A stretch of DNA of 62,666 nucleotides, counting the filler, from Pseudomonadota bacterium (GTDB taxonomy: Bacteria > Pseudomonadota > Alphaproteobacteria > Paracaedibacterales > CAIOTO01), in assembly GCA_040387495.1 (NCBI GenBank). It is 4 parts of 3 records of this genome, joined end to end, with 100 filler letters (N's around TTAATTAATTAA, not from the genome) between each part and the next. Parts side by side here need not be neighbours in the genome. Positions count along the whole stretch, not along the records: positions 49,201 to 53,437 come from JAZKDQ010000019.1; 3 more parts are not named here. One strand, 5' to 3'. A program made the position numbers and the translations under genes. How positions within the stretch are numbered: the stretch's first letter is position 1; each line of letters begins with the position of its first letter. The notes under the pieces are model-generated. The model was not told where the DNA came from. It did no database searches and saw nothing but the letters and a program-made list of their open reading frames with translations. Shown piece by piece: positions 50,852-56,386 of the stretch.

Positions 50852-51949
50852 CTACACATTAAATCTAAAATTGAAAATATCACCGTCTTTTGCAACGTAT
50901 TCACGGCCTTCTTGGCGGAACTTGCCGGCTGCACGTGCGTTTGCTTCCCCATTGCATTCCATATAATCATCATAGGCCATAGTTTCGGCGCAGATGAATC
51001 CACGTTCAAAATCAGAGTGTATAACGCCGGCACATTGCGGTGCTTTCATGCCTTGTGTGATTGTCCACGCGCGCGCTTCTTTAGGACCAACGGTGAAGAA
51101 TGTTAGTAGGCCGAGTAATGCATAGCCTTCACGGATGATGCGCTTTAGGCCGGTTTCAGTAAGGCCGAGGCTTTCCAGGAATTCTGCTTGTTCCTCGATT
51201 GGTAATTGGGCCACTTCGGATTCAATTGCTGCGGATATAACAACGGCTTTAGCGCCAATGGTTTTTGCGTATTCAAAGACTTGGCTGGTAAAGGCATTGC
51301 CCGTTTCGGCTTCGGATTCGGCGACGTTGCATATATAAAGGATGGGTTTAGATGTCAGCAATTGTAGCTGGGCGAAGAGTGGCTCTTCGTCTTTTGTGAT
51401 TTTAGCGGCTGAAGCTGGTTTGCCTTCTTGTAAAAGCGGAAGCACTTTTTTAATCAGCTCGAGCGTGCCTTTGGCTTCTTGGTCATTGCTGCGGGCGCGT
51501 TTCTCAAGGCCATTGATGCGGCGCTCTAGACTTTCCATATCAGCAATCATGAGTTCAGTTTCAATGGTAGTTAAATCGCGGAGTGGGTTAACGCTGCCAT
51601 CAACGTGTGTAATATCATCGTCTTCGAAACAGCGAAGTACATGGAAGATTGCATCAACGGATCGGATGTGCCCTAAGAATTGGTTGCCGAGCCCTTCGCC
51701 CTTGCTGGCGCCGCGTACAAGACCGGCGATGTCAACAAGTTCGAGTTGAGTTGGGATGATTTTTTGGGATTTTGCGATGGCTGCGATTTTATCGAGACGA
51801 TCATCGGGGACGCCAATACGGCCAGTGTTCGGTTCGATTGTGCAAAAGGGGTAATTGGCCGCTTCGGCTGCAGCTGTTGCTGTGAGTGCGTTGAAGAGTG
51901 TTGATTTGCCAACGTTTGGTAGGCCGACGATGCCGCAGTTGAATCCCAT
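50852..51949 (-). CDS. ychF: Redox-regulated ATPase YchF
   Basis: MGFNCGIVGLPNVGKSTLFNALT, NYPFCTIEPN, DIAGLV, C-terminal FRFNV. Confidence 0.98.
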   Translation of the reverse strand: MGFNCGIVGLPNVGKSTLFNALTATAAAEAANYPFCTIEPNTGRIGVPDDRLDKIAAIAKSQKIIPTQLELVDIAGLVRGASKGEGLGNQFLGHIRSVDAIFHVLRCFEDDDITHVDGSVNPLRDLTTIETELMIADMESLERRINGLEKRARSNDQEAKGTLELIKKVLPLLQEGKPASAAKITKDEEPLFAQLQLLTSKPILYICNVAESEAETGNAFTSQVFEYAKTIGAKAVVISAAIESEVAQLPIEEQAEFLESLGLTETGLKRIIREGYALLGLLTFFTVGPKEARAWTITQGMKAPQCAGVIHSDFERGFICAETMAYDDYMECNGEANARAAGKFRQEGREYVAKDGDIFNFRFNV

Positions 51950-52040: not shown

Positions 52041-52070
52041 AAAAAAGGGCAACTCAAAAAAGTCACCCTT
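52041..52070 (-). terminator. Probable terminator of the ubiquitin-motif gene
   Basis: AAGGG...CCCTT stem with an A-run on the + strand (T-run on the - strand). Confidence 0.5.
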
Positions 52071-52117: not shown

Positions 52118-52432
52118 TTAACCTTGCGTGCTTTCAGCATCATTTTTGGTGCTTGTCGATTCTCTTGCTTTTAACACTAAGTGAAGAGTGGATTCTTTTT
52201 GTTCATTATAATCAAGTGAAACTTGTGGCCCACACATGCCCTCGATCTTGTGAGGTTCAGGAGCAGGAGGAAGTGGTTCCGCGTAATTTGTTAGTCTCTT
52301 AGCCGCATAACTTGTTGGTCTATTATCATTTAACGTCTTAGTAATGATATTCTTTGTGTCATCATTTATCGTCGAAGCCATAGCTGCTGAAGCTAATGAA
52401 ATCGTAGCGAGCATTACGAGTTTTGTAATCAT
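52118..52432 (-). CDS. Small secreted protein containing a ubiquitin C-terminal-like segment
   Basis: ATG 52432 after AAGGA RBS. Signal peptide MITKLVMLATISLASAAMA. Contains DYNEQKESTLHLVL (ubiquitin 58-71 is DYNIQKESTLHLVL). Confidence 0.75.
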   Translation of the reverse strand: MITKLVMLATISLASAAMASTINDDTKNIITKTLNDNRPTSYAAKRLTNYAEPLPPAPEPHKIEGMCGPQVSLDYNEQKESTLHLVLKARESTSTKNDAESTQG

Positions 52433-52608
52433 GGTAAAATCCTTTTCAAGGGTAAGAATAAAAGCACAGGTTTTCGTTGCTATTCTTATATAGGAATGAT
52501 TTGAATATAAATCAAGAGTATTTCTCAAAAAGTTTAAAAATGATAGATAATTCACATTTTGAATGAATATTTTGGCTTAGGTTTTTTTCCATACTACCTG
52601 AACGATTT

Positions 52609-52718
52609 TCTTCTCCGGTCTTGAGCCGGGGATCTCAGATGTTTTGTAATAGTTTAACACCTAATTAGTGTATGCCTTTTAGTATTTTAGATCCTCGAGT
52701 TAAGCCCGGGGAAGACAC
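52609..52718. repeat. REP-like palindromic doublet (Rickettsia palindromic element style)
   Basis: 52609-52635 and 52689-52715 are imperfect inverted repeats (21/27), each self-palindromic, around an AT-rich spacer. Confidence 0.65.
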
Positions 52719-52987: not shown

Positions 52988-53382
52988 TAAACCGACCCCC
53001 TTTGTCTAGACTACTAAGCAGCTAATTGTAAGGAGAGCTTCCTTTCATTTCTAGAGTGTCTAAAGTTCTTTTTTGTGGTGGTTGTGTTGATAAAACTGTG
53101 CGTAAACTCACTTGAGTTTTCCACATTTTTATTAACAACTAAGAAGGCTTCTTTTGATGCCATTTTTCTTCCGCTCATTACTTCATGCGGTCGGTTCTTA
53201 CCAAGAGAGCTATGACGTCGATCATAATTATACCAATCAATGTAGGTGGCCAGTGATTGCCTTGCTTCAGTAACAGAATCGTAGGTTTTTAAATAAACCT
53301 CTTCATATTTTAATGTGCGCCAAAAACGTTCAATAGGAATATTATCTAAGCAGCGCCCCTTACCATCCATACTAATCTTTAT
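52988..53382 (-). mobile_element. IS3-family remnant (3' part of OrfB transposase and right end)
   Basis: IKISMDGKGRCLDNIPIERFWRTLKYEEVYL...WYNYDRRHSSL. Terminal sequence TAGTCTAGACAAAGGGGGTCGGTTTA. Cut off at 53382 by the IS982-like end. Confidence 0.88.
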
Positions 53383-53437: not shown

Positions 53438-53537
53438 NNNNNNNNNNNNNNNNNNNNNNNNNNNNNNNNNNNNNNNNNNNNTTAATTAATTAANNNNNNN
53501 NNNNNNNNNNNNNNNNNNNNNNNNNNNNNNNNNNNNN
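53438..53537. other. Artificial contig-joining linker
   Basis: N44-TTAATTAATTAA-N44. Confidence 0.97.
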
Positions 53538-54330
53538 GCAGCAGCTTTATCCGCAGCAGCTTTATCCGCAGCAGCTTTGTCAGCGGCAGTTTTGTCAGCG
53601 GCAGTTTTGTCCGCAGCAGCTTTATCGGCAGCAGCTTTGTCAGCGGCGGCTTTATCCGCAGCAGCTTTATCCGCAGAAGCTTTGTCTGCAGCAGCTTTGT
53701 CAGCGGCAGTTTTGTCCGCAGCAGCTTTATCGGCAGCAGCTTTGTCAGAGGCAGCTTTGTCAGAGGCAGCTTTATCCGCAACAGCTCTTGCAGCGGCCTT
53801 TTGTGCTGCGGCAATACCAGTTGCAATTTTCTGGGCAATTGCTTGAGCTGCTGCAACAGCTGCAATTCGATCATTTTCTGCCTTTTGTGCTGCTGCAAGA
53901 TCAGCTGCTATTTTGTCTGCTGCCACTTTATCGCTGGCTGCCTTTTGCGCTGCTGCTTGAGCTGCTGCGGCGGCTGCAATCCGATCGGATTCTGCCTTTT
54001 GTGCTGCTGCAAGATCAGCTGCTATTTTGTCTGCTGCCGCTTTATCGCTGGCTGCTTTTTGCGCTGCTGCTTGAGCTGCTGCAACAGCTGCAATTCGATT
54101 ATTTTCTGCCTTTTGTGCTGCAAGATCGGCAGCAGCTTTATCGGCTGCTCTTGCTTTTGCATTCTCTGCCGCAATTCTTTCAGTTTCAGCTTTTTGAGAC
54201 GATGCAAGTTCTGCCAGTGCTTTTTGTGCTGCAGCCTTATCTGCTGCACGCGCTGCGGCTTCTTCTGCTGCAATTCTGTTTGTTTCAGCTTTTTGCGCAG
54301 CAGCAAGATCGCCTATTGCCTTTTGTGCCT
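53538..54330 (-). repeat. Hierarchical coding repeats in the VgrG tail
   Basis: About 16 15-bp units (AAADK-type) at 53538-53781 and five DLAAAQKAE..RIAA blocks, the last ones with a 114-bp period (53881 vs 53995). Confidence 0.92.
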
Positions 54331-56386
54331 CAGCCCTGTCTACTGCTCTTTCTGCTGCCTCTATTGCCTCTTCTTCTGCTTCAGCTTTATCGGCTTCAGC
54401 CTTTTGCATTGCTGCGAGCAATGCAGCCTGAGCTGCACTTGCGGCAACATAAGCAGAGTCCATTGGGAAAGTTGGTAATTTGCCTGGAAAATCAACGGTA
54501 ACGAGCATACCACCACTAATATCAACTTTATTGGGTGCTGCAATGTTGATGCTGTTGTGTGCATTTAGATTAATGTTGTTTCCTGATAAATTAAGTGTGC
54601 CACCTGCTGCGATTGAAATGTCGCCAGCTGCTTGAATCGTTAAGCCACCATTTTCAAGATTGATAATATAATCACCAGCTCTGAGTGTAAGGGCTTTATT
54701 CCCTTGGGCAACCATTGTATTCACGTTTCCATGTGCAAGTGTTGTCGTGCAATCTCCATCTGTTAATGTTAATGCGTAATTCCCTGCAACAGCGACATCC
54801 ATGTCTTTTGCAGCTTTTACGCTTATTTTTTCTTTACCTTTTGCATCATCGATACTTAGTTCATTATAGCAGCCATTTTTGCGTGTTGAATTTGTTTTAA
54901 AAGCACTTTTAGTGGGGTTCGTCACAACAGAATTTGGCGGACTATTGTCAGCGTTGTATACACAGCCTATAACAAGCGGCATGTCGGGATTACCATCTAT
55001 GAATGTAACAATTACTTCCATACCTACACGTGGAATGACTAGTCCGCCCCACCCAGCGCTTGCCCAGTTTTGTGAAACGCGTACCCAGCAAGAACTATTT
55101 GTATCAAATGTTCCACGTGTATCCCAGTGGAATTGAACTTTAATACGTCCTAGATTATCACAATAAACTTCTTCACCTGCTGGTCCGACAACAACAGCTG
55201 TTTGATTACTGTGGATTTTTGGCTTCTTGGTTTTTCGGATAGGAGTAAAAATAATATTATTTGGTATAGCTGAAAAATTATTATCATAGATAGTTTGTAA
55301 GAGTGTGCTACTACGTGGATTTTGTAAGAAATTTATTCTGCCATCTGAATGGTTATCATTTTTACTATTACTTTGCTTTTCATGCGTGGGGATACGTGTG
55401 ATTTGATGTGTGATCGCGTAAATAAAATAAGTAATATTGGCATCATCACTTGGATGTTCAGTAAGAGTAAATATTGAGGCCTCACTTAATAGAGGCGCCG
55501 TTGATTTTCCAAAAATTGTGTTTTTTGGCCATTCAATTTCATTAATACGTACAGATGCAACATGTTCACTTGTTTTTAAATTATGAAAGGATGCTGGATA
55601 TTCATAAATTGTGCCACCAATACCATCTCCACTGACGGAGGATCGTAGTGGCATAGAGGGTGCCATATAGTTGTAATTTGAAGCTTTATAGTTACTTGCA
55701 ACCACGTTATGTTGACGTCTTAAAAATGTAACTTGGTTCATAGATGGTGTGTCACTTAAGACAGATTGACTCATAGGTAAGTCTTTGTAAGCCTTATTTC
55801 CATCATTATTTTGATCCATAAGAATCATTGTGTGCTGACCAAACAGATGCGCAAAGGAATAGCCTATTCCTTCCTCTTCCATCAAACGAGAGATGAAATC
55901 AAAACAGCTTTCATCGTATTGGACGCAGAACTCACGTTTGCTTTTTCCCATGTTGGATGTACGATTATCAATTTGTGTAACGCCATTTTCTTGCAGAACA
56001 TGTGTGATTATATCGCTGACATATTGATTCTGAAAAATACGATAATCTTTAGTGAATGTTAGAAGCCATAGTTTTGGATGAAGGTGTAGTTCGTAAAAAA
56101 CATACAATAGACCATCACTTCCTTCGCGTGTCTCTAGCTGATCAATGCATCCAATTATGCCGCTGAAGTTACGCGTTTTTCCATCAAGCGTCAGTGATAA
56201 TGAAGCTTCTGTGCCTAAGAGTTTATCGCATTTAATTTCTTTGTTAAGAGAGTGAACGGTGAGCTTATAGAGAAACGGTTTTGAAATTTCTTCCGTGCCA
56301 TCCATGGAATCAATGATGAGAACGTCATGCCCTAAAATGCAGGAAAAGTTTAATGATATATCATTAGAAGAAAGCACTTTTTGCAC
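53538..56386 (-). CDS. vgrG: Type VI secretion tip protein VgrG with Ala-rich repeat extension (3' end missing at contig edge)
   Basis: REFCVQYDES, FISRLMEEEGI, GRIKVQFHWD, SCWVRVSQNWA, PRVGMEVIVTFIDGNPD.PLVIGCVYN and gp5-like beta-helix repeats. Confidence 0.93.

Follow-up and report, generated by a model that had tools for sequence, protein, structure and literature searches.

A putative relic of ubiquitin coding DNA in a small exported orphan protein of an alphaproteobacterium

How does a small bacterial gene come to carry a near-exact copy of one piece of ubiquitin, and does that piece act as ubiquitin does? The question is raised by an ORF at 52118-52432 (minus strand) of the window, by which we mean the whole 62,666-nucleotide stretch of DNA that was analysed. 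The ORF encodes a protein of 104 residues, with a mature part of 85 residues, and an earlier note had taken it for a host-derived ubiquitin gene in the course of being remodelled into a non-conjugatable decoy or an interbacterial factor. On balance we lean modestly towards another reading, in which a fast-evolving exported orphan has had its 3' block replaced and may carry a relic of ubiquitin coding DNA as a passenger, with no ubiquitin-like function.

The window is a concatenation: contigs C13 (in parts), C19 and C20 (both entire) are separated by runs of N's with a 12-base linker. The ORF lies on C19 (49201-53437 of the window, 4237 bp), the G+C content of which, 0.39, is similar to that of the genome. 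The VgrG gene at 53486-56386 belongs to another contig, C20, across a junction, and is not a neighbour of the ORF. Along C19 one finds in turn the gene for an alternative oxidase, that for a small exported protein rich in Cys, ychF, the ORF and a fragment of an IS3-type transposase. Features of the ORF and its surroundings are listed below.

52487-52515, minus strand: candidate sigma-70-type promoter (TTGATT, 17 nt, TATATA), conserved with the sister species; its function is presumed.
52440-52444, minus strand: RBS AAGGA, 7 nt 5' of the ATG; RBS and start codon are identical in the sister species.
52376-52432, minus strand: codons 1-19, signal peptide MITKLVMLATISLASAAMA read by eye, with predicted cleavage between A-M-A and S.
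52316-52375, minus strand: codons 20-39, the first ~20 mature residues, including NIITKTL; a module common to the positional orthologue in the sister species.
52214-52315, minus strand: codons 40-73, a Pro-rich orphan middle with a single cysteine (Cys67) and no relative in 1.84 billion representative proteins.
52163-52213, minus strand: codons 74-90, ubiquitin-derived stretch DYNEQKESTLHLVLKAR, corresponding to ubiquitin 58-74 (14/17 identical).
52118-52162, minus strand: codons 91-104, an acidic, Ser/Thr-rich tail without a diglycine in the translation, and the TAA stop.
52045-52070, minus strand: intrinsic-terminator-like hairpin and T-run 3' of the stop, from a hairpin scan.
50852-51949, minus strand: ychF GTPase gene, downstream of the ORF on the same strand, which anchors the contig in the genus.
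53014-53370, minus strand: IS3-type transposase fragment (integrase core; Pfam rve_3, E 9e-15) at the contig end.
21289-21388, 49101-49200 and 53438-53537: N-run joins between the concatenated parts.

Two other genes of this small contig deserve mention in their own right. The alternative oxidase gene (49614-50258, plus strand; Pfam AOX, E 1e-82) belongs to a family known chiefly from mitochondria and some proteobacteria. The exported Cys-rich protein beside ychF (111 residues; 50426-50761, plus strand) falls into no Pfam family, and its gene is preceded at a short distance by a TTAA-N7-TTAA box (50358-50372). This CtrA-box pattern has eight matches in the window, none of them within 52433-52700.

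The ORF is a real gene. It has an RBS, a start codon and signal peptide that are conserved in the sister species, and a terminator, and it is intact in a second strain. The RBS, Sec signal and terminator that had been noted for the 104-residue frame were thus all found, the Sec type-I signal being judged by eye from a basic n-region (M-I-T-K), a hydrophobic run and the A-M-A that precedes the predicted cleavage site. The candidate promoter scores under the threshold of a consensus promoter scan. Compared with the sister species, the signal-peptide codons comprise 8 identical, 7 synonymous and 4 nonsynonymous positions, which indicates that the sequence is translated and under purifying selection.

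Because the genome is a metagenome-assembled genome and the contig is only 4237 bp long and ends in an IS fragment, we considered whether a chimeric assembly or a binning error had fused a piece of a protist ubiquitin gene with bacterial sequence. Genuine eukaryotic ubiquitin DNA that agrees with part of the stretch does occur in run X5, an unrelated freshwater metagenome, in which contigs match 52177-52214 and then, from a loose end at 52214, continue as canonical ubiquitin (QLEDGRTLS); k-mer searches of sequencing runs with the ORF therefore pick up protist ubiquitin genes. The coverage check proposed in the earlier note came out clean at the level of assembled contigs, those of Logan, from which coverage was judged. 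The Logan assembly of run X1, the run that matches this DNA best and perhaps the sample of origin, has a 1119-nt contig over 51924-53042 that is identical across the ORF and both flanks (0 differences) at a depth of 12.9, which is the genome's depth, and an adjoining 2725-nt contig over 49226-51950 at a depth of 10. Depth in this run rises about tenfold over the transposase fragment, consistent with a repeat. Run X2 has no Logan contig over 52041-52466. Of the eight sequencing runs found, none is listed as RNA. A second strain copy, P0152, comes from an ENA assembly, in which a variant of the protein with an intact ORF is found on four contigs, the longest of 20 kb. An artefact would also need two in-frame junctions 51 nt apart, and it would have to be squared with flanks homologous to the same locus of the sister species and with the genome-like G+C content of the contig. 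We regard an artefact as very improbable.

The similarity to ubiquitin itself is exact in its placement. The motif DYNEQKESTLHLVL lies at 52213-52172 (minus strand) and is 13/14 identical to ubiquitin 58-71, just as had been noted. Extending the comparison to residues 74-90 (DYNEQKESTLHLVLKAR against DYNIQKESTLHLVLRLR of ubiquitin 58-74) adds KAR opposite RLR and gives 14/17 identities. In a sequence search of the Protein Data Bank, residues 71-91 alone align, to ubiquitin 55-75. By our reading, ubiquitin 58-74 comprises strand beta-5, preceded by the loop that contains K63 and followed by the beginning of the tail. The translation bears out the earlier reading of KAR after the motif and of a missing C-terminal diglycine: LVL is followed by KARESTSTKNDAESTQG, and the basic ubiquitin end RLRGG is represented by KARES. 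The ubiquitin-like part thus covers about 51 nt (17 codons) with sharp edges, and no flanking repeats that bracket 52163-52213 were found.

Could so short a match be due to chance or convergence? With the genome's six-frame amino-acid frequencies, and counting every one of the 63 ubiquitin 14-mers, the expected number of matches of at least 13/14 is 1.4e-7 for the genome and 1.4e-3 for 250,000 windows of such size. The runner-up to a ubiquitin 14-mer anywhere in the genome reaches 8/14. Since the expectation is so low and the runner-up so distant, residues 74-90 are, judged from their sequence, ubiquitin-derived; the shortness of the match notwithstanding, a chance or convergent origin is improbable in the extreme.

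A ubiquitin-derived stretch does not, as far as sequence and structure prediction go, make the protein a ubiquitin domain. Over residues 74-90 it shares 14/17 positions with eukaryotic ubiquitin (PF00240), including H68, V70 and L71, but in sequence it has no counterpart of beta-1 to beta-4, the helix, I44 or RLRGG. The Pfam ubiquitin model does not match the protein even at E<=10, and a six-frame PF00240 search of the genome, which found ubiquitin in both of two control genomes, did not report the locus. Structure prediction, the other check suggested for the fold, gave no beta-grasp, at low confidence: AF2 run without an alignment has a mean pLDDT of 57 and places a helix over residues 24-37 and pairs 70-75 with 81-86 in a hairpin, and the ESM Atlas model, also made without an alignment and of low confidence, has a pLDDT of 0.42. 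None of the ESM Atlas neighbours is ubiquitin-like, the search by features gave no usable look-alike, and the structural rows name no family. Ubiquitin mimicry by the 104-residue protein appears unlikely.

The similarity also does not extend upstream of the stretch. The earlier note had heard echoes of ubiquitin there, of MQIFVKTL in NIITKTL and of IPP in LPP. Both fade when residues 20-73 are compared with ubiquitin 1-57, as the similarity is at the level of shuffled sequences (p=0.43; p=0.40 with other gap costs). At the DNA level, the best local match to ubiquitin upstream of the stretch is 20/26 nt and not significant (p=0.15); it is collinear, setting the codons of NIITKTLND against ubiquitin codons 3-11. 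A frameshifted ubiquitin was looked for and rejected, the other two frames being stop-rich and, by eye, without a ubiquitin-like stretch.

The weak collinear match keeps alive, at a low probability, a reading in which the whole gene is an eroded ubiquitin: an exported ancestor like BfUbb of Bacteroides would have decayed by substitutions and deletions everywhere except in beta-5. From the signal through I-x-x-KTL early in the mature part, LPP and the motif to the tail, the layout of the protein is collinear with such an ancestor. Against it, the similarity of the N-terminal part is at shuffle level, as described, and comparison with the sister species points the same way.

The sister species (G001; this genome is G000) is a close relative, with 95% identity in ychF. 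It has a 139-aa ORF at the same position upstream of ychF (L008:2897-3316, minus strand). As a side observation, promoter, RBS and signal peptide of this positional orthologue are the same as here, but its mature part of 120 residues is entirely different and belongs to no Pfam family. By blastn, the upstream intergenic DNA is 83% identical between the two genomes, and the block with the candidate promoter, RBS, start and signal peptide is 75% identical. Along the coding sequence, nucleotide identity falls from 77% in codons 1-19 to 48% in codons 20-39 and 25%, the random level, in codons 40-100; homology returns at ychF. BLASTP aligns residues 1-39 of the two proteins at 49% identity (E 4e-7) and places KNIITKTL opposite KYIIQSL. 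The supposed ubiquitin echo is thus a feature of a genus-level N-terminal module, found also in an orthologue that has no ubiquitin motif. Past codon 40 the two proteins have no similarity (p=0.50), and the protein of the sister species has none to ubiquitin (p=0.48). A piece of the latter, RTIDYSEIFKGITDSL, was aligned by eye to the ubiquitin motif and set aside as not significant.

These comparisons weigh against erosion of a whole ubiquitin in two ways: the I-I-x-x-L stretch is common to a protein without similarity to ubiquitin, and the two species are too close for uniform decay to have erased a ubiquitin domain and yet spared 13/14 residues in one stretch. What differs between them is a whole block. 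About 350 nt, comprising codons 40-104, the stop and the terminator, are wholly different, and a wholesale difference of this size between close species indicates recombinational replacement rather than gradual decay. The locus seems, from this comparison, to swap its 3' cargo and keep its export module. ychF, which has 87-96% amino-acid identity to that of five same-genus genomes, is flanked by different genes in the other four same-genus genomes that have it.

Searches beyond the sister species show the protein to be an orphan. HMMER against 1.84 billion representative proteins gave 167 matches, of which the top one is the protein itself; among the best 150 of the 167, all others match through the motif alone, which in most cases recurs along a long protein; the ones inspected are polyubiquitins or ubiquitin-repeat proteins. 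A word-index protein search produced four candidates, among which the protein itself was the only find. When 41 related genomes were searched, matches at E<=1 were obtained in four: this genome, the sister species (residues 1-40) and two with E>0.1. In none of the 41 genomes does a match carry an uninterrupted reading frame across the ubiquitin-like stretch, and one match, in G006 (residues 4-79), is interrupted by four internal stop codons. The intact homologues with a signal and a ubiquitin domain for which the earlier note had proposed a search were thus absent from these 41 genomes, and the positional orthologue lacks the motif.

Where would the stretch have come from? PF00240 ubiquitin was found in none of 62 genomes of the order, so there is no resident ubiquitin gene from which it could have eroded, a further point against decay of a whole ubiquitin. 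An exact 26-nt piece of the stretch had no match in viral contigs. In metagenome contigs the same piece occurs at 10 loci, all of them true AT-rich eukaryotic (poly)ubiquitin genes, and at none of the 10 does the exact run go beyond 26 nt. The best DNA identity to AT-rich eukaryotic ubiquitin genes is 36/42 nt. No donor can be named, because ubiquitin genes retrieved without codon selection already reach 34-35/42. Codon usage in the stretch is mostly that preferred by the genome, with TCC (0.08), ACT (0.20), CAC (0.29) and AGA (0.13) as exceptions; these non-preferred codons are suggestive of a foreign origin and are too few to count. A bacterial exported-ubiquitin gene is, from the sequence, as possible a source as a protist host or another eukaryote. 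Of the proposal that a host-derived ubiquitin gene is being remodelled, the ubiquitin derivation therefore stands, and the rest is not supported: derivation from the host is not demonstrated by an identity of 36/42 against 35/42, and in place of a whole remodelled gene there are about 51 ubiquitin-like nucleotides with sharp edges and no Pfam match.

The second strain offers a view of how the stretch is evolving. P0152 translates identically over the 46 in-frame codons 5' of the ATG and differs from the 104-residue protein by four amino-acid changes: A17T, A51T, S72L and K79N. Its stretch reads DYNEQNESTLHLVL. Two of the changes (S72L and K79N) fall in residues 71-90 and two in the other 84 residues, and K79N hits the equivalent of K63. 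From these two protein sequences, no tighter constraint is visible on the stretch than on the remainder of the protein, which also speaks against a ubiquitin in which beta-5 alone was preserved. The sharp edges, together with the two of four strain changes inside the stretch, favour a young captured piece over an old, selected ubiquitin.

Taken together, these observations suggest the following course of events. The gene would be a lineage-restricted one for a small, mostly unstructured, Sec-exported protein. Its 5' part, with the promoter, the RBS, the signal peptide and the first ~20 mature residues, would have been inherited and is common to the sister species, where it also lies next to ychF. 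The block of ~350 nt that begins near codon 40 and stops short of ychF has no relative in the sister species or elsewhere among the sequences searched, and on this account it would have been exchanged by recombination. The 51 nt within the block would be a relic of a horizontally acquired ubiquitin gene (58-74), from a eukaryotic or a bacterial exported-ubiquitin source. In the protein the scrap would form at most one arm of a short beta-hairpin and would most likely have no ubiquitin-like function. Capture by recombination, a young age and the lack of ubiquitin function are the parts of this account that we infer.

Exported ubiquitins of bacteria are the natural comparison. BfUbb and BoUbb are secreted ubiquitin homologues of Bacteroides (PMC3352274, PMC5705921); the former is a complete ubiquitin with 63% identity to the human protein (PMC3352274), and it kills competitors via a periplasmic PPIase after SusCD-type import (PMC11467351). 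The 104-residue protein resembles them in its type-I signal peptide, its ubiquitin-derived sequence, the lack of a usable diglycine and a presumed horizontal origin. It differs in having only 17 ubiquitin-like residues and no predicted fold, where BfUbb is a whole domain with shown antibacterial activity. On its sequence, then, the protein is not filed as a BfUbb-like member, since it is without the defining ubiquitin domain.

A wider class of genes emerged from a scan of prokaryote genomes with a degenerate form of QKESTLHLVL, which returned at least 120 loci (L022-L141). Most of these, from many bacterial and archaeal phyla, encode a near-perfect whole ubiquitin that begins directly at the signal cleavage site and is extended in varied ways at its end; about a fifth of the first 120 are tiny polyubiquitin contigs that resemble eukaryotic contamination. 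The 104-residue protein has in common with the genes for signal, ubiquitin and extension the export signal, the LHLVL end, which there too is often followed by K for R, and a Ser/Thr/Pro-rich continuation. Nearly all of the genes among the loci listed keep ubiquitin 1-71 after the cleavage site, whereas here 58-74 alone is found, and, unlike in them, 54 non-ubiquitin residues separate the signal from the stretch. A separate case is an uncultured Rickettsiales MAG (L031/L143), which encodes on a 243-kb contig a complete ubiquitin that ends in RLRGG and one further residue, with no signal peptide (PF00240, E 2.7e-31).

The scan also offers an argument for an eroded whole ubiquitin, because most of its first 120 loci show the very order of cleavage site, complete ubiquitin and extension, often with LHLVLK, from which such a gene would have decayed. 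The overall layout of the 104-residue protein does resemble this class, to judge by the K after LHLVL and the Ser/Thr-rich tail that recur there. Set beside the shuffle-level N-terminal part, the close sister species, the 62 genomes without ubiquitin and the strain changes, this leaves erosion unlikely, and capture of a piece the reading we prefer.

The closest parallel that we found, as far as sequences can tell, has the same partial character. A Streptomyces sp. isolate encodes on a 58-kb contig (L144:1621-2049, minus strand) a signal-bearing orphan of 142 residues, the last 23 of which are ubiquitin 54-76 with RLRGG and then the stop. Pfam ubiquitin matches it over profile positions 47-72 only (E 1.6e-4). 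Its ubiquitin part has G+C-rich codons and the same G+C content as the rest of the ORF, and the best 120 of its 1373 matches include no non-ubiquitin relatives. Both proteins are exported orphans and singletons with the C-terminal third of ubiquitin only and a sharp boundary. The Streptomyces protein differs in its RLRGG end followed by a stop, in its identity of 17/17 over NIQKESTLHLVLRLRGG and in its unrelated N-terminal domain. Two such fragment-only singletons suggest that captures are occasional and do not last long, rather than that a family is under selection. The literature on BfUbb, on ubiquitin in Paracaedibacter and on ubiquitin-derived peptides that was searched describes no bacterial case with a fragment alone.

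Fragments of ubiquitin can nevertheless be active as peptides. Ub2, STLHLVLRLRGG (ubiquitin 65-76), is described as a free, cationic antimicrobial peptide from lysosomal ubiquitin that forms beta-sheets and inserts into membranes (PMC8065624). It has STLHLVL and one arginine in common with the 104-residue protein (8/12 residues). Ub2 is freed by lysosomal proteolysis, whereas the stretch here is internal, is followed by acidic and polar residues and has a changed basic end.

This raises the possibility of a functional linear mimic, in which the beta-5 and tail stretch would be selected and would act outside the beta-grasp fold, perhaps by decoying host proteins that recognise the tail or the H68/V70 surface of ubiquitin, or as a membrane-active segment like Ub2. 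The identity of 13/14 could reflect strong selection on the stretch, which has stayed near-exact while the rest of the protein diverged beyond recognition, and this would favour such a mimic. The export signal read by eye, the intact gene in two strains, the 8/12 residues common with a peptide described as membrane-inserting (PMC8065624) and the exported Streptomyces protein that also ends in ubiquitin 54-76 are all in keeping with it. Several observations weigh on the other side: two of the four strain changes lie within the stretch and one of them alters the K63 equivalent, both fragment-only proteins are singletons without families, and KARES has replaced the basic RLRGG end. A Sec signal alone, too, takes proteins only as far as the periplasm. 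The genome moreover has no matches to the OTU, Peptidase_C48, U-box and F-box-like families, in searches for which C48 alone had a positive control and the other three of the four had none. A linear mimic is, on this evidence, rather doubtful, and the passenger relic remains the reading that we prefer.

A bolder version would see in beta-5 and the tail of ubiquitin a functional unit that can be carried from gene to gene and that exported proteins of bacteria, here and in Streptomyces, have captured repeatedly. Working independently of the beta-grasp fold, it might in this protist-associated bacterium decoy host proteins that recognise the tail or the H68/V70 surface of ubiquitin. Alternatively, it might decoy or resemble the membrane-active peptides that eukaryotic cells derive from ubiquitin and use against intracellular bacteria. 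We offer this as speculation and think it quite improbable.

Bacterial genes for a whole ubiquitin are known from BfUbb and, according to the scan that returned at least 120 loci, are common; a scrap of 17 residues in an exported protein is a different thing. If the stretch were functional, ubiquitin would here be mimicked by a linear segment instead of a fold, the first such case. If the capture reading is true, the locus would be a clean, small example of foreign coding DNA entering the fast-evolving secreted-protein genes of symbionts, and it would caution against inferring a domain from a famous motif, however near-exact the match.
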